Notes: a model not told the origin generated them from the letters alone. Numbered from the stretch's first letter, positions 6,504 to 11,315 are shown. The stretch: 12,865 bases of DNA from a virus (IMGVR_UViG_3300013105_000004:77973-90837), one strand, 5' to 3'. Translations and numbers: made by a program.

Positions 6504-7082
6504 TCAATCTCGTTTTTGTGCCATGAGCATCGAAGCGAACACGTCCTCCACTTTCGTTTCAACCATACTACGCACGACCTCATCTTTTGCTTCTACTGGC
6601 TTAACGTACGGAGGCTTTGCGCCTTTCTTCGAAGCGGCTGCATGTTCCGCTACGTACGCTCTGCTAAGGCTGTAGACCGCCCGCAACTCTTTCGGGCTCA
6701 GAATCCCGACCATATCATTACAGCGTGCCCACGCTTCAATTTCCTGCCATGACAATCCAGCCAATCCCATTCCCGTTACGCCTGCTACACCGGCAGAATG
6801 CAAAAGAGCCACGAGATACCCCGCTGCTTCCGAAATCTCGGGCATTGGAATCTCTCGTAGCTCCTGTACTGATACATCAAGCGTGTCGGGGATGGAACCA
6901 TCATCTTCTTCATCCCCGGAGTCGTCCGGCGAGACAACACTACCTAGCGTTGCTCGCTTTATTTGCTCCGCTCGGCTGACCTTCTGACCGTCCGGGATAG
7001 CGTTGTAATACGCTTCCTGTCGAACATAAAGTTCAGCCTCATCGACTGTTACTTGAAAAGCTCGATAGTACCCAGTGCTTCG
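6504..7082 (-). CDS. Tail assembly chaperone C-terminal extension (lambda gpT-like), probably made as a -1 frameshift fusion with 7049..7459
   Basis: The track ORF 6504..6845 stays open a further 79 codons upstream, to 7082 (the preceding in-frame stop is TGA 7085-7083), with no ATG/GTG/TTG in that stretch. It overlaps the end of the chaperone gene in the -1 frame and sits directly before the TMP, the canonical G/GT position. Confidence 0.75.
   Translation of the reverse strand, partial: RSTGYYRAFQVTVDEAELYVRQEAYYNAIPDGQKVSRAEQIKRATLGSVVSPDDSGDEEDDGSIPDTLDVSVQELREIPMPEISEAAGYLVALLHSAGVAGVTGMGLAGLSWQEIEAWARCNDMVGILSPKELRAVYSLSRAYVAEHAAASKKGAKPPYVKPVEAKDEVVRSMVETKVEDVFASMLMAQKRD
7049..7082 (-). 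other. Window in which a programmed -1 ribosomal frameshift must occur; best candidate slip is CTT TTC AAG
   Basis: This is the only overlap between the chaperone frame and the open -1 frame. TTC can re-pair on TTT in CTTTTC. There is no canonical X XXY YYZ heptamer. Confidence 0.55.
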
Positions 7083-7459
7083 TCAATCTGCGCCTTGATG
7101 AAACCAATGGAATCATCGCTCAGCATTGCACGGAATTGCGAATCCGTTTTGACCGGCTCACCGTCATACGACAGGTTTTCCGAATCGAGGCAGCAAGCTA
7201 CCAGCAGTTCGACACCTTCCGCCTTTTGTTCTTCGGCGTTCAGTTTCTTGTTGCCGCGTTTGATGCTGCGGTTAATCATTGCGTTCACAGCAAGACGGTA
7301 CTCACGCGAACCAGTCGAAGCGACGGTAACGGTGACAGGGTTCTTGCCCTTAGCGTCCAGCTCGCCCTTGTCGTTCACGAACAGGAAGTCGTCGGTGAAC
7401 GGGTTCTTCAGGTGCAGAACGGTAGATTCTTTGATTGCTAGCGATTTTACGTCAAACAT
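7049..7459 (-). CDS. Tail assembly chaperone (lambda gpG-like), 136 aa
   Basis: Lies between the tail tube and TMP genes, with the size and charged, helical character typical of TACs. SD AAAGGA lies upstream of ATG 7459; the gene ends GAG CTT TTC AAG TAA. Confidence 0.85.
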   Translation of the reverse strand: MFDVKSLAIKESTVLHLKNPFTDDFLFVNDKGELDAKGKNPVTVTVASTGSREYRLAVNAMINRSIKRGNKKLNAEEQKAEGVELLVACCLDSENLSYDGEPVKTDSQFRAMLSDDSIGFIKAQIDEALGTIELFK

Positions 7460-7503
7460 GGTATATTCCTTTACATGGTAGGTTGCGGCATTTATTGCCT
7501 GTG

Positions 7504-7609
7504 TTTTTACTAACGTAGTTTTGCCTACGTAGACACCATCGATTGTACACTACGTACCACATTTTGTCAAATTTTGGTAGTGTTCCGTACAAAACTATGT
7601 TAGTAAAAA
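7504..7609. repeat. 20-bp inverted repeat (19/20) enclosing a 66-bp segment that contains a promoter
   Basis: 7504-7523 TTTTTACTAACGTAGTTTTG versus the reverse complement of 7590-7609, TTTTTACTAACATAGTTTTG. Irregular inner pairing continues (TACG 7526-7529 with CGTA 7586-7589; ACAC 7533-7536 with GTGT 7580-7583). Confidence 0.92.
7542..7570 (-). promoter_or_regulatory. sigma70-type promoter directed at the chaperone / tape measure / tail-tip genes
   Basis: Minus strand TTGACA (7570-7565), a 17-nt spacer, then TACAAT (7547-7542): perfect -35, 5/6 -10, optimal spacing. It lies just downstream of a terminator, about 80 nt before the chaperone start. Confidence 0.72.
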
Positions 7610-7627
7610 GCCCCGCCGAAGCGGGGC
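7605..7627 (-). terminator. Rho-independent terminator after the tail tube gene
   Basis: Minus strand GCCCCGC-TTCG-GCGGGGC-TTTTT, a few bases after the tandem TAA TGA stops; cUUCGg tetraloop. Confidence 0.92.
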
Positions 7628-7633
7628 AATTCA

Positions 7634-8122
7634 TTACGCCGTAGCGTTAGCAACAACGATGTCGTTGTCGATTTCCACGTCAGCAGTCAGACCTGTGATC
7701 TGGTCAACCGAACCGACTTCCAGCGTCCAGCCCATCACCTGAGCGGTGAAGTAGTAGATAGTGCCCGATTGGGTCACGACCTTGAAGGCGTACGAGATGT
7801 CTTGGTCAGCAGCAGCTTTCAGGGCGATCTGGCCCGGATTGGTAACAGAGTCACCCAGCTTCAGTTGCAGAGTACCGTTGTTGTACGAACCACGGCGCTT
7901 GACGGTCTTACGGTCGCTCAGCGGGTTGAACGTTACAAGGTTGTACTTCTTACCGAACGAGCCTAGGTCGGTCAGTTCACCGATCTGGATGTAGCTTGCG
8001 CCCGCGAATGTCGTAGCGTCATACGTGGTTGCCAGTCCAGCCGGTGCAGCAGCCGGAGCTGAGCCAGTGCCAGAGATAAACAGTTGTGTACCAGCACTGG
8101 TACGTACATTAGAAACAGCCAT
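7634..8122 (-). CDS. Major tail (tube) protein, siphovirus type, 162 aa
   Basis: The motifs IGELTDLGSFGKKYNLVTFNPLSDRKTVKRRGSYNNGTLQL and FKVVTQSGTIYYFTAQV are typical of tail tube proteins. Strong SD AAAGGAG; followed by a terminator, as expected for a high-copy protein; lies upstream of TAC and TMP. Confidence 0.9.
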   Translation of the reverse strand: MAVSNVRTSAGTQLFISGTGSAPAAAPAGLATTYDATTFAGASYIQIGELTDLGSFGKKYNLVTFNPLSDRKTVKRRGSYNNGTLQLKLGDSVTNPGQIALKAAADQDISYAFKVVTQSGTIYYFTAQVMGWTLEVGSVDQITGLTADVEIDNDIVVANATA

Positions 8123-8129
8123 TATTTAC

Positions 8130-8149
8130 TCCTTTGAGAGATTAGTTGG
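8130..8149 (-). repeat. Gene-junction direct repeat, copy 1 (CCAACTAATCTCTCAAAGGA)
   Basis: Matches 11776-11794 at 19 of 20 positions (one-base gap). It spans the upstream stop codon and the SD of the tail tube gene. Confidence 0.75.
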
Positions 8150-8495
8150 TCAGAAGCGTTACGATTGCAGCAGTAGCACCAGCCACAGTTACAGTCCCGT
8201 TACCCGCGAGGTACGGGGCAATGGAGTCGAGCGCTACGTGGTATGTAGTGTTTGTTGCAATCGTCAGTGACAGGCCGGAAGTCAGGTTGGTAGTCAAACC
8301 AGCGACACCGGGTACAGGGTATGCAGCAGACGGAGCCGATCCCTTGATTGTCACAGTCAGCGGCCCTGCCGTGTTATTGTGAATCTCAAGCACTTGGCTT
8401 GTATTCGGCACGTAAGTAAACGTGTCAGACGCGGTAGCAGTGGTACGACTTACCGGAGTTACGCCAGCACGTACTGTCGAGTTAATAGTTCCCAT
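8142..8495 (-). CDS. Hypothetical Thr/Ala/Gly-rich beta-strand protein, probably a virion structural protein, 117 aa
   Basis: Own SD (AAGGA) and TAA stop, fitted between the tail terminator and tail tube genes. About one residue in five is Thr and only six residues are D/E/K/R. Confidence 0.7.
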   Translation of the reverse strand: MGTINSTVRAGVTPVSRTTATASDTFTYVPNTSQVLEIHNNTAGPLTVTIKGSAPSAAYPVPGVAGLTTNLTSGLSLTIATNTTYHVALDSIAPYLAGNGTVTVAGATAAIVTLLTN

Positions 8496-8519
8496 TTATT
8501 TTCCTTCGAAGAAAAGTTG

Positions 8520-8912
8520 TTATGATTCAATTCTGTAGTTGCCACGAACCGGGACGAATGTGAACCCGTCGATTACGCTACCACTTGACCAACTCAAGGG
8601 CTGTTCAATACTGACGGCCCCCGTTTTTGGTAGTACCGGGAATAGTGCTACGATAGACTCCGCCATCGCTTCCACGCCTCCCATTCCTTTTCCAGCGGGT
8701 GTGTAACAGTTGACTTGGAACATTCCATATTCCCTTACACCATCCGCTGCGACGTTCCTCAACTTGCTGTCCGATCCGAGCATGAATACCTCTAGGTACG
8801 GACCGCTTGTTGGTTTTGTAAAACTCACACCTTCGAACGCTACTGGGACCGGAGGCGTTTGCGCTTTCGCCCAGTTAGTGATTCGTGTTTCGATTTCTGA
8901 TCGAGCTGTCAT
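8520..8912 (-). CDS. Tail terminator protein (DUF4128 / lambda gpU-like position), 130 aa
   Basis: The pattern PVAFEGVSFTKP...YLEVFML...GMFQVNCYTPAGKGMG..EAMAESIVALFP resembles DUF4128-type tail terminators; it is the last of the neck genes before the tube. Confidence 0.78.
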   Translation of the reverse strand: MTARSEIETRITNWAKAQTPPVPVAFEGVSFTKPTSGPYLEVFMLGSDSKLRNVAADGVREYGMFQVNCYTPAGKGMGGVEAMAESIVALFPVLPKTGAVSIEQPLSWSSGSVIDGFTFVPVRGNYRIES

Positions 8913-9328
8913 TACGGCCTCTTATATTTCGGAACAACTTTGATAAAGGCTTTAGCGATCATTGCGTACGGTCCGACACGTCCAGACCATGTAGGCGTCG
9001 GCCAACCAGCGTATTCAGCACGGAAGCCGTACGGAGTCGAATTGGACAAACTGACGCTACTGTCACGGCCTACGAAGCCTTTATAGACCCGTAGAGACGC
9101 GATCTGCGTGAGGCTGGACATTCCGTCCTTGCTGGCAGAGTTTTCGTTGTAGGAGCCGTTATACGTGCGTCCTGTGCCTGCGTACCAGTTGTTCTTCAGT
9201 ATTCCCTTGTCCACCGGAGTGTTTTCAACAATCTCCGCGAATAGCTCTGTGGCGATTGCGACGATCTTGTCGTTAACCTGCTCCTTGACCTTCGCGTTGT
9301 GAATCCGGATCGAGTCAGCGAAGCCCAT
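8912..9328 (-). CDS. Tail completion / neck protein, HK97 gp10-like, 138 aa
   Basis: ELFAEIVENTPVDKGILKNNW...LSNSTPYGFRAEY pattern (TPVDxG motif); position between head closure and tail terminator; TAATG overlaps at both ends. Confidence 0.82.
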   Translation of the reverse strand: MGFADSIRIHNAKVKEQVNDKIVAIATELFAEIVENTPVDKGILKNNWYAGTGRTYNGSYNENSASKDGMSSLTQIASLRVYKGFVGRDSSVSLSNSTPYGFRAEYAGWPTPTWSGRVGPYAMIAKAFIKVVPKYKRP

Positions 9329-9705
9329 TATGCCCTCGCGTAAATCTCGTACAGGTAACTCTTAGTGCCTGATGGGTTGTGGTCCTTAACAACTTTCACC
9401 GACCAACGCTTACCTTCGAACAGCAAGTAGTCAACTTCAGCTCGCGGTAGCGGTGTGTTGTCACTAGGCTGAACGAAAATCCACTTATCACCTGTTTGGA
9501 TCGCCGTTCCAGCCTTTGTCAGCAAGCCGAGCGACCGCTGAATGTAGTCCTGTGCAATGATGCGGACAGGGTACTCAGTAGTTGACGATGTTGTCGTGGA
9601 GGTTTCTGGATCATATGTTGCCTCCCCAGACTCCACTACCAACGTCGCATCTCCGCCGAATCTTCCCATCATCATGACAACGGTTCTGATAAGCGGATCA
9701 ACCAT
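9328..9705 (-). CDS. Head-closure (stopper) protein, SPP1 gp16-like, 125 aa
   Basis: YDPETSTT near the N-terminus and a C-terminal EGKRWSVKVVKDHNP...YLYEIYAR beta pattern; second gene after the MCP. Confidence 0.72.
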   Translation of the reverse strand: MVDPLIRTVVMMMGRFGGDATLVVESGEATYDPETSTTTSSTTEYPVRIIAQDYIQRSLGLLTKAGTAIQTGDKWIFVQPSDNTPLPRAEVDYLLFEGKRWSVKVVKDHNPSGTKSYLYEIYARA

Positions 9706-10181
9706 TAGAAGTAGCCCCCGATTGTATTGAACGGATCGTTAGGGACCGTGCTTGGCGGCAGAGCCATCAAATGCATATCCTGCGATTGCGTCGTCGTGAT
9801 GTAGTTGCTGTTCCAATCCTTCTGGAATTGAACCAGAGGCATTTCCACCACTTGTCCGAATTCGTTCTTAACCTGCGCTACGTACGGCATCGGAGTGATG
9901 TCCATGAAGTTCGGGTTAAGGATCGTAGCTTTAACGAATGCAAGGTAGTTGTTGAACCACTCTGCACCGAACACTTCGATCTGTGCTAGCTTCTGGTGCG
10001 TCTGTGAAGTCAACATCGCAAGGATGTACTGAGCAACGAGGACACTAGCTTTCGGGACGTTGTTGTTGCAATCCGTAAGAGCTGACAAATACACTGAGTC
10101 AGGCATTAGCGGAAGATCGGAGAAATCACCTACACGTAGGCGCATCTTGCCAATTGGTTGTGTTGGATCGAGAAGTGCCAT
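9705..10181 (-). CDS. Head-tail adaptor (head completion) protein, SPP1 gp15-like, 158 aa
   Basis: First gene after the MCP terminator. Helical N-terminus with KMRLRVGD...PDSVYLSAL...ASVLVAQYILAML, as seen in adaptor proteins; SD AAAGGA. Confidence 0.72.
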   Translation of the reverse strand: MALLDPTQPIGKMRLRVGDFSDLPLMPDSVYLSALTDCNNNVPKASVLVAQYILAMLTSQTHQKLAQIEVFGAEWFNNYLAFVKATILNPNFMDITPMPYVAQVKNEFGQVVEMPLVQFQKDWNSNYITTTQSQDMHLMALPPSTVPNDPFNTIGGYF

Positions 10182-10192
10182 TGTTTGTCCTT

Positions 10193-10262
10193 TCTGTTAT
10201 TTATGAAGACTAGGTACGGAATTAACCGTTTGACATGGGACGTAATCTTCATAAATAACAGA
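10193..10262. repeat. Perfect 17-bp inverted repeat enclosing 36 bp, between the MCP terminator and the adaptor RBS
   Basis: 10193-10209 TCTGTTATTTATGAAGA is the exact reverse complement of 10246-10262 TCTTCATAAATAACAGA. Confidence 0.93.
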
Positions 10263-10277
10263 CCCCGAAGGGTCTGT
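10251..10277 (-). terminator. Rho-independent terminator after the major capsid gene
   Basis: Minus strand ACAGACCC-TTCG-GGGTCTGT-TATTTAT, about 10 nt after the MCP stop. cUUCGg loop; the imperfect U-tract suggests partial read-through. Confidence 0.88.
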
Positions 10278-10286
10278 ATTCAAGCA

Positions 10287-11315
10287 TTAGTTGCTTGTCG
10301 TGCCTTTAACTACCAGCAACGGCTTCAGCAGCGCGTTGATGAAGTTCGACTCACTCTCGATGGTGTACGCGGTTCCGTTAGGAGCCATCGTTTCGAACAC
10401 GTACAGTTGTTCACCTTGCGTGTTCACCAGACCGAAACGGTTAGCTGGCGAGAAGTAGGTCTTGAAGAACTCAGTACCAGTCGGTACGAAGTACGCATCG
10501 TTCACCGGGATCAGGCGTTGTCCGTTGTAGGAGTCACGCATTTCGATGAAGGTCACGCCCATGAATTCCCACGTACGACGCATTCCAACTGCGCTACCAT
10601 TTTCCGACTGACGACGACGCAGCGGTTCGCTTGTCGAAGTGTAGTACTGGTAGGCTTGCTTAACTACCGGGTGGGTAATCAGCTTTTGGAAGAACGTAGT
10701 ACCGCACAGAGCCACGACGCCGCTGTAGTTCACCGATCCGCTGTTATCCTGAATCTGTGCCAGAACGGTTTCGATGACTGTCGAGATTTCCGTGCCCGGA
10801 GTACCCAGCAGGAAGTCAACAGCAGCAGGGCGAGCTGCGCCGGTCATTTCCTGATACCAGTCTTGCGACACAGTACCGTTAGGAGCGTACACAGTACCAG
10901 CCGTGATAGCTTGTGCACGAGCTGCTTCCAGCGTCCATGCGTGGTTCTGACGCAGACGGGCCAGCTTACGGGCACGCACGAGGTCCAGCGTTTCAGCTTC
11001 CGAAGCCGATCCGTAGGCGCGTTTGCCTTGGATGTCTTGCGGATAGATCGCATCTTCCAGAGGGAAGTGCGGAACGGTGAACGAGTGCATCTTGCGTTGT
11101 TGGTCGCGGCCCACGCTTGAGCGGTCGCCACGAACACGGTCAACGATCAGTGCACCGTCTTTGATGATTTCTTCGAACACAACCACGTGCTCGGCAACCG
11201 ATTCCTCTTGGAAGATGCCCAGTTGGCCTAGCAGACCCCACTGGTTAGGAATGGTGTTTACTTCTTCTGTCCAGTCAACGACGCTAAAGCCGTTACCAAA
11301 ATCGCGAACGATCAT
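10287..11315 (-). CDS. Major capsid protein, lambda gpE-like family, 342 aa
   Basis: FTVPHFPLEDAIYPQDIQGKRAYG, RARKLARLRQNHAWTLEAARAQAI and ESNFINALLKPLLVV motifs match the phage cap_E-type capsid family as I recognise it. Follows protease-scaffold-decoration; strong SD AAAGGA; followed by a terminator. Confidence 0.95.
   Translation of the reverse strand: MIVRDFGNGFSVVDWTEEVNTIPNQWGLLGQLGIFQEESVAEHVVVFEEIIKDGALIVDRVRGDRSSVGRDQQRKMHSFTVPHFPLEDAIYPQDIQGKRAYGSASEAETLDLVRARKLARLRQNHAWTLEAARAQAITAGTVYAPNGTVSQDWYQEMTGAARPAAVDFLLGTPGTEISTVIETVLAQIQDNSGSVNYSGVVALCGTTFFQKLITHPVVKQAYQYYTSTSEPLRRRQSENGSAVGMRRTWEFMGVTFIEMRDSYNGQRLIPVNDAYFVPTGTEFFKTYFSPANRFGLVNTQGEQLYVFETMAPNGTAYTIESESNFINALLKPLLVVKGTTSN

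Follow-up and report, generated by a model that had tools for sequence, protein, structure and literature searches.

The late operon and its two long inverted repeats

The subject of this study is a pair of intergenic regions in the late operon of an uncultured phage, each of which contains a long inverted repeat beginning in the U-tract of a predicted intrinsic terminator. The regions lie in a stretch of 12,865 nucleotides (nt) (IMGVR_UViG_3300013105_000004:77973-90837), here called the window. It forms the final 12.9 kb of an IMG/VR virus record that is 90,837 bp long and carries direct terminal repeats; positions refer to the window unless the genome is named. All genes of the window are on the minus strand. 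Along the direction of transcription they encode a head decoration protein, the major capsid protein (10287-11315), a protein of 158 amino acids (aa), the head closure, neck and tail terminator proteins, the major tail (tail tube) protein (7634-8122), a chaperone pair of the G/GT type and a tape measure protein of 1826 aa. The capsid protein (342 aa) matched phrog_29, major head protein (E 1.4e-55), and a tblastn search connected it with annotated major capsid proteins at 46-50% identity, in no case above 50%. The tail tube protein (162 aa) matched phrog_158, major tail protein (E 2e-20). No DNA-level match to a phage was found in the GenBank phage collection in either the near or the distant search mode. 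For comparison we used more than 40 related loci, taken from IMG/VR and one metagenome scan, with capsid identities from 93% to about 30% and tail tube identities from 87% to 45%.

A preliminary description of this DNA had noticed the same layout behind the capsid gene and behind the tail tube gene: a cUUCGg terminator, an inverted-repeat arm starting in its U-tract, a spacer, the second arm and a ribosome-binding site. This layout is real, and we refer to the two places as site A (behind the capsid gene) and site B (behind the tail tube gene). At both of them a terminator scan predicts an intrinsic terminator with a GC-rich stem-loop and a U-tract on the transcribed strand, downstream of the stop codon; the terminator stems covary among relatives, and the arm next to the terminator starts inside the U-tract. 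The repeats of A and B are the two longest in the genome, where only three inverted repeats, these two among them, have arms of at least 14 nt and a gap of 10-150 nt. When the genome was block-shuffled 60 times, a repeat with 19 matched bases came up once and one with 21 in no case. A genome search for long inverted repeats after terminators, which the preliminary description had proposed, returned only sites A and B, and none of the other terminator-like hairpins of the genome has such a long repeat behind it. In our judgement the order of terminator, repeat and ribosome-binding site is a real, selected feature at both sites and the pairing is itself under selection, strongly so for hairpin A.

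Positions 7300-10500 gave no Rfam 15 family at gathering score, and only two matches at chance level (E 0.5-0.8). The third long inverted repeat of the genome, at genome positions 27303-27364 in a gene-free region, is a set of GTCTTATATAAGAC-type palindromes which looks like an operator. Hairpins with a GCTGATTAGC motif were also located, and they are an element distinct from hairpins A and B.

The hairpin behind the capsid gene

The terminator of site A (10258-10277, minus strand), predicted by the terminator scan and by folding, has an 8-bp stem, a UUCG loop and an imperfect U-tract, UAUUUAU, and it is kept in all relatives. In hairpin A (10193-10262, minus strand) the 5' arm (10240-10262) consists of the U-tract and the bases following it, the loop spans 10216-10239 and the 3' arm (10193-10215) ends at the Shine-Dalgarno sequence of the next gene. 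The arms are 23 nt long, matched at 21 of 23 positions and separated by a 24-nt spacer. In the minimum free energy fold they form an uninterrupted stem of 17 bp (z -4.5 against shuffles). The start region of the next gene (10179-10192, minus strand), which encodes the 158-aa protein (phrog_1732), has its Shine-Dalgarno AAGGA at 10188-10192, where the second arm abuts it directly, and its ATG at 10179-10181; a GAAAGGA motif is kept here in relatives.

Hairpin A is kept in about 16 distinct IMG/VR relatives, including phages whose tail tube protein is only 55-67% identical. The order of terminator, long hairpin with no gap and with the U-tract as its 5' strand, GAAAGGA and start codon was seen in every relative down to 63% capsid identity, and again in three further, more distant relatives identified by their tail tube gene. 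Across the relatives the stem sequences are widely divergent and the loops are unrelated. When 13 sequences were aligned, RNAalifold recovered the stem, with 12 of 18 pairs changed on both sides, and 94% of the cells paired, as against 41-52% with a slid partner; the pairing values were reached by none of 500 shuffles. Is it the DNA or the transcript that is being kept in this form? In the aligned stem there are 15 G.U cells which pair on the sense strand only and 4 A.C cells which pair on the antisense strand only. When the hairpins were folded on both strands, the sense strand was the more stable in 12 of 15 (mean difference -4.2 kcal/mol), with a Wilcoxon p of 0.005 that is only indicative, the sequences being related to one another. 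The strand in mRNA sense thus folds better, and this points to hairpin A acting as an RNA structure. In 12 sequences the extracted fold is the long hairpin alone, and in 11 of these the uninterrupted basal stem has a length of 14-21 bp. Like an RNase III-type stem, hairpin A is a predicted double-stranded RNA of about two helical turns, on the transcribed strand and with compensatory change.

Hairpin A is absent from more distant relatives and from Nankokuvirus phages, whose capsid protein is related; in these the terminator is followed immediately by the Shine-Dalgarno sequence. Because of this arrangement in the distant relatives, we regard hairpin A as having been added, specifically in this clade, between the U-tract and the Shine-Dalgarno sequence. 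In our view it is also older than its current loop sequence. Nankokuvirus records (ON524867.1, 30834-31516) carry an annotated 'putative antisense RNA' over the 3' half of the related capsid gene and the intergenic region that follows; this intergenic region has a plain terminator and a Shine-Dalgarno sequence, without a long hairpin.

The hairpin and the promoter behind the tail tube gene

At site B the predicted terminator (7610-7627, minus strand) has an all-GC stem of 7 bp, a UUCG loop and a UUUUUAC tract, and is kept in relatives. Hairpin B (7504-7609, minus strand) takes its 5' arm (7590-7609) from the U-tract and has its 3' arm at 7504-7523, with a weaker extended pairing between approximately 7576-7589 and 7524-7537. 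The arms of 20 nt are matched at 19 positions and enclose a spacer of 66 nt, and the site folds with a z of -4.2 against shuffles. In the apical part lies a predicted sigma-70-type promoter, TTGACA-17-TACAAT (7542-7570, minus strand), which is directed with the operon and agrees with the consensus at 11 of 12 positions. The 5' untranslated region (5' UTR) of the next gene, a chaperone gene (7457-7499, minus strand), begins with a small hairpin, GGCA-AUAAA-UGCC (7487-7499), and continues with GCAACCUACCA, the Shine-Dalgarno AAAGGAA (7466-7472) and the ATG (7457-7459), in invariant alignment columns; about 31 nt of conserved 5' UTR separate the second arm of B from the Shine-Dalgarno sequence. 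The block 7476-7499 of this region is kept in nearly all relatives that share the promoter-class spacer described below.

The terminator and a promoter of the form TTGACA-17-TAnnnT were present, in constant orientation, in 16 of 16 distinct relatives, with a divergent spacer in the distant ones. Because both hexamers and their 17-nt spacing are kept while the spacer varies, which amounts to a phylogenetic footprint, we hold that the site B promoter is genuine. On the same comparison we consider it older than repeat B, which is confined to a closer subclade made up of the window and six further distinct sequences. In the six relatives with the repeat, 91% of the cells pair, compared with 31-39% with slid partners. 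Double changes are seen in 7 of 20 pairs (for example UUUUG/CAAAAC vs CUCUCU/AGAGAG vs CUAUCUA/UAGAUAG), and the nine outer pairs are invariant. The preliminary description had suggested a check of base-pair covariation on alignments, and compensatory changes were thus found at both sites, in 12/18 pairs at A and 7/20 at B. A recurring operator in the arms of B was ruled out: the arm motif, ACTAYGTTAGTA, was found nowhere in the genome besides site B.

A proposed role in read-through transcripts

Since the U-tract of the terminator supplies the proximal arm at A as well as at B, and the distal arm is not reached until 24-66 nt past the termination point, the duplex can form only after read-through. 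We think it most likely, with a probability of roughly 0.55, that the hairpins act as mRNA boundary elements in the read-through late mRNA, where they would either be cut by RNase III or serve as barriers to decay. According to this model, the capsid and tail tube genes would each end in a leaky intrinsic terminator. Transcripts stopping at the terminator would be without the distal arm and would form no duplex. Read-through transcripts would gain a distal arm complementary to the U-tract and the next bases, giving a stem of about 15-21 bp that would stack directly on the terminator hairpin. The duplex could then be cut by host RNase III, as its length of about two helical turns would favour, or it could be a barrier or mask against exonucleases and against RNase E at the AU-rich tract. 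In both cases a stable hairpin would close the abundant upstream message, whose fate would be uncoupled from that of the low-copy genes downstream. At site B the older sigma-70 promoter would restart transcription for the chaperone, tape-measure and tip genes, and its transcripts, which would carry the distal arm only, would escape the structure. RNA processing or stabilisation, like the enzyme responsible, is what we infer from the sequence. We take A and B to be independent post-terminator structures of the late mRNA and not copies of one module; what they have in common is a design and not a sequence.

Several points weigh against a function as boundary elements. Several relatives have the terminator and the promoter but no hairpin B, which is therefore dispensable there. 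At hairpin B, folding of the antisense strand was equal to or better than that of the sense strand in 6 of 7 sequences, and the sense arm has a conserved A.C mismatch, which on the opposite strand becomes a G.U pair. Neither a phage-encoded RNase III nor a double-stranded RNA-binding domain was found in the genome. It could also be that the terminator hairpin by itself already protects the upstream message.

Words shared by the two spacers

The preliminary description had pointed out three words, GTACGGAA, TTTGACA and ACGTA, which recur in the two spacers, and they are located exactly where it had placed them. At site A (10214-10244, plus strand) they run antisense to the operon, are present in the window and its nearest relatives only, and have no usable -10 hexamer. 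At site B (7551-7590, minus strand) TTTGACA is the -35 box, ACGTA lies inside the promoter-class spacer GTACGTAGTG, and GTACGGAA is a degenerate TACGTAG-type box. The proposed genome search, for GTACGGAA followed after 3-20 nt by TTTGACA, found these two places only. Two colinear shared words of at least 7 nt arose in 366 of 40,000 dinucleotide shuffles of the two spacers (about 0.9%), and the full 20-nt chain of words in 42 of 5000 (0.8%), both counts being post hoc, with a comparison that was picked after the fact. In the nearest relatives the 8-mer is not common to both sites, and site B reads GTACGTAG there; in close relatives its position at B is occupied by GTACGTAGTG or CTACGTAGTG. Loop A is entirely different in most relatives.

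TACGTA occurs 68 times in the genome, against about 13 in shuffles, and is thus 5-fold over-represented, and GTACGTAGTG adjoins the -10 hexamer of five TTGACA promoters of the genome. The promoter class, TTGACA-N8-9-(G/C)TACGTAGTG-TAnnAT, is found at genome positions 2143(-), 12193(-), 38070(+), 47438(+) and 85542(-), the last of these being window position 7570. This recurring TACGTA class may represent a phage regulator site or an extended promoter element. In our assessment the sharing of words between A and B is coincidental, and comes from a -35 hexamer, an over-represented TACGTA-type box and one 8-mer that is unshared in relatives. The words of the supposed inner motif are therefore present as described, but their significance is marginal and the sharing is lost in relatives. 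As evidence that would count against it, the preliminary description had named words no more similar than in shuffled controls, and relatives that conserve the terminators without the repeats or the inner motif. The word sharing was matched by about 1% of shuffles and the inner motif is lost in relatives, but the repeats go beyond chance and hairpin A is kept.

An antisense promoter in loop A was considered and, as a conserved feature, rejected. TTGACA is found there only in the window and its nearest relatives, and the best -10 candidates are without a T at position 6, a usable -10 being defined by A at position 2, T at position 6 and a distance of 16-18 nt from the -35. Loop A of the other relatives held no convincing promoter candidate on either strand.

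Alternative explanations

From the shared words it had been proposed that A and B are related elements in opposite orientation, as would be expected of invertible or independently inserted promoter modules; B would then be a phase-variable switch run by a recombinase. Three ordered words in opposite orientation, at about 1% of shuffles, would agree with such a flipped cassette, and so would the enclosure of the B promoter by inverted arms matched at 19 of 20 positions and the presence in the genome of a gene for a serine-recombinase-like protein with Resolvase and partial Recombinase domains. However, the arm sequences of A and B are unrelated, and the arms covary, unlike conserved recombinase sites. 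The sequence of loop A is unconserved beyond the nearest relatives and holds a conserved promoter on neither strand, and the 8-mer is unshared even in the closest relatives. The B promoter has an identical orientation in 16 of 16 relatives, so that the orientation polymorphism for which the preliminary description had suggested looking was absent among them. The pair of words and the arm motif occur nowhere else in the genome, the B promoter is older than repeat B and hairpin A older than its loop. All five of the complete relatives carry the recombinase-like gene, including two without repeat B, and a tyrosine recombinase was not found in the genome. To our knowledge, invertible segments are far longer than spacers of 24 and 66 bp. 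We find the inverted-module explanation barely credible and, as far as the sequence data reach, we regard it as refuted. The other suggestion made at the outset, a shared site on paired stems, holds in so far as the pairing is kept by compensatory changes in relatives, but not in taking the two sites for copies of one element. As to the recombinase-like protein itself (235 aa; genome 13419-14126, plus strand; Resolvase N-terminal domain, E 7e-25, and a partial Recombinase domain), its gene lies opposite a longer open reading frame (ORF) without Pfam matches and has 70-89% identity in five complete relatives; the phage is seemingly lytic.

Because the strand test gives the mRNA sense no support at site B, a DNA-level role of B, in regulator sites around the promoter, must be taken as a serious rival there. 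The arms and the TACGTA-type boxes might be sites for a dimeric or looping phage regulator of the internal promoter, and the RNA fold a by-product. Such sites would account for the invariance of the nine outer pairs, for the missing preference for the sense strand, for the several TACGTAG-like boxes inside B and for the excess of TACGTA in the genome (68 vs about 13 in shuffles) with GTACGTAGTG next to the -10 of five TTGACA promoters. That the motif ACTAYGTTAGTA is restricted to B would then be surprising, as would the inner arm segments, which covary freely and so fit pairing better than protein recognition; hairpin A, with its sense-strand bias and without a promoter, would be left unexplained. 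We consider this DNA-level explanation unlikely on the whole. Could the hairpins rather have a role in translation? They might bring the upstream stop codon and terminator beside the downstream Shine-Dalgarno sequence, or supply a stable 5' flanking helix, and in this way set the efficiency of re-initiation or translation. The 3' arm of A ends 0-5 nt before the conserved GAAAGGA in all relatives, and folding restores the geometry of relatives without the hairpin (terminator, a few nt, Shine-Dalgarno); Cluster K mycobacteriophages, with 17-bp inverted repeats directly upstream of their start-associated sequences, are a loose parallel (PMC3203893). At B, however, about 31 nt of a separate conserved UTR stand between the arm and the Shine-Dalgarno sequence. 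None of the folds sequesters the Shine-Dalgarno sequence, and a translational role seems to us rather improbable. Finally, the repeats could be selfish or neutral palindromic insertions, of the kind of miniature inverted-repeat transposable elements (MITEs) or Correia elements, or else inverted duplications of the U-tract, tolerated while folded and without function. The distant relatives without hairpin A, in which the Shine-Dalgarno sequence comes right after the terminator, give it the look of an insertion, the presence of hairpin B varies among relatives, and Correia elements, too, have terminal inverted repeats, may supply promoters and are bound or cut by RNase III (PMC2649163). What speaks against insertions is that there are two copies only, with unrelated arms and no further copies in the genome, that their position is fixed in all relatives, that the B promoter is older than the arms, and that the pairing is kept over deep divergence although inverted repeats are easily deleted. 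We hold this possibility to be quite improbable.

Comparison with known systems

A duplex which overlaps an intrinsic terminator is known from lambda sib/tI, where the RNase III site of int is completed only by read-through; on this retroregulation of int, Plunkett and Echols 1989 is cited in PMC5371410. As proposed here for the late operon, a duplex over the terminator exists only in read-through RNA, and terminated and read-through RNAs therefore differ in their fate. In sib, however, read-through extends the terminator stem itself and the upstream message decays, whereas the phage described here has a separate hairpin of about 20 bp beside the terminator, built from the U-tract and situated inside a late structural operon, and its cleavage is a proposal. 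In T7 and T3, polycistronic mRNAs are processed by RNase III at R sites, hairpins between cistrons that span about two helical turns and leave the upstream message with a protective stem at its 3' end. Hairpins A and B resemble them in being intercistronic phage mRNA hairpins of about two helical turns, but the T7 sites have a characteristic internal bubble and are not built on a terminator U-tract. In invertible promoter switches of the fimS or Hin type, inverted repeats flank a promoter, as they do at site B; unlike these switches, site B has a constant orientation, the arms are not conserved sites, the spacers measure 24 and 66 bp, and the distribution of the recombinase-like gene does not follow that of the repeat.

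Two gene pairs of E. coli are cleaved by RNase III: pflB-pflA, where the read-through RNA is cut past the intergenic terminator and next to the promoter of pflA, and ahpC-ahpF, where the cut likewise falls between the genes. Each cut stabilises the upstream message and separates the two RNAs (PMC5371410). The pflB-pflA case is like site B in that the site lies behind a rho-independent terminator of an abundant upstream gene and beside the downstream gene's own promoter. Both E. coli pairs are host genes with measured cleavage, and their likeness to the phage sites is one of layout. The PeSL elements of T4-like phages are terminator/promoter composites with many dispersed copies of similar sequence, which are tied to indel hot spots in early regions (PMC4122927, PMC2839356). 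Site B is likewise a stem-loop terminator directly followed by a sigma-70 promoter, but PeSL elements have no long bracketing repeat, and site B is a single conserved site in a late operon. A mobile cassette of the PeSL type was rejected because neither the word pair nor the arm motif recurs elsewhere in the genome and the other composites there differ in sequence. Two more composites of a terminator and a sigma-70 promoter were seen, at genome positions 74247(-) and 39935(+), in which the U-tract runs into the -35 box and there is no long flanking repeat.

The Correia elements of Neisseria, of about 100 bp, are multicopy and mobile, have terminal inverted repeats and may carry promoters, and their transcribed hairpins are bound or cut by RNase III (PMC2649163). 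The phage elements are similar in their terminal inverted repeats, in the promoter carried at B and in forming a hairpin when transcribed, but they are two single-copy elements in fixed positions with arms that are unrelated and covary. With only two elements, unrelated arms and positions fixed in all relatives, a MITE or Correia-like element was discarded as a candidate. In the extended start-associated sequences of Cluster K mycobacteriophages, the 17-bp inverted repeats upstream of ribosome-binding sites have a common consensus (PMC3203893). Taken together with these systems, the hairpins look to us like a variant of intercistronic processing or stability hairpins and of terminator-promoter composites, with a neat read-through-only design.

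Other features of the operon

Downstream of site B the arrangement of the chaperone genes is of the G/GT type. An open frame at 6504-7082 (minus strand), in the -1 frame, shares positions 7049-7082 with the end of a 136-aa ORF (7049-7459). For this reason the '113-aa ORF' starting at 6845 is probably a frameshift extension of the tail chaperone rather than a gene of its own. Within the -1 frame extension there is a third long hairpin of the same operon (6804-6866, minus strand), whose stem measures about 13+5 bp and precedes a UUUUG. The hairpin is kept, with compensatory changes, as far as the distant relatives, as in CUACGAGA/UCUCGUAG vs CGACAAGA/UCUUGUCG vs AGACAAGA/UCUUGUCU, and it looks like an attenuator or a terminator upstream of the tape measure gene.

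Possible significance

Could the hairpins be more than boundary elements, namely dedicated sensors of read-through? A duplex would then form only when the terminator fails, and after its cleavage by host RNase III all messages for capsid or tail tube, terminated and read-through alike, would end at the same stable hairpin, with the low-copy genes downstream on a message tuned separately. In this way a retroregulation of the sib kind would set the stoichiometry of virion proteins, and it would have evolved independently at two sites of one late operon. Such a reading takes in the third long hairpin with its U-tract in the frameshift extension of the chaperone; it is a doubtful one, which we offer tentatively.

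The analysis removes the more exotic explanation, that of mirrored or invertible promoter modules. How the large differences in expression between capsid or tail tube genes and their low-copy neighbours arise is understood in only a few model tailed phages. In an entire clade, made up of uncultured phages with genomes of about 90 kb, compensatory evolution keeps a precise architecture: the U-tract of a terminator is at the same time one strand of a duplex, about 20 bp long, that could form only upon read-through. Should the duplex serve as a signal for processing or stability, it may provide a compact part for the design of synthetic operons, and it would give a simple and testable rule for the way in which late operons of such phages control their stoichiometry.

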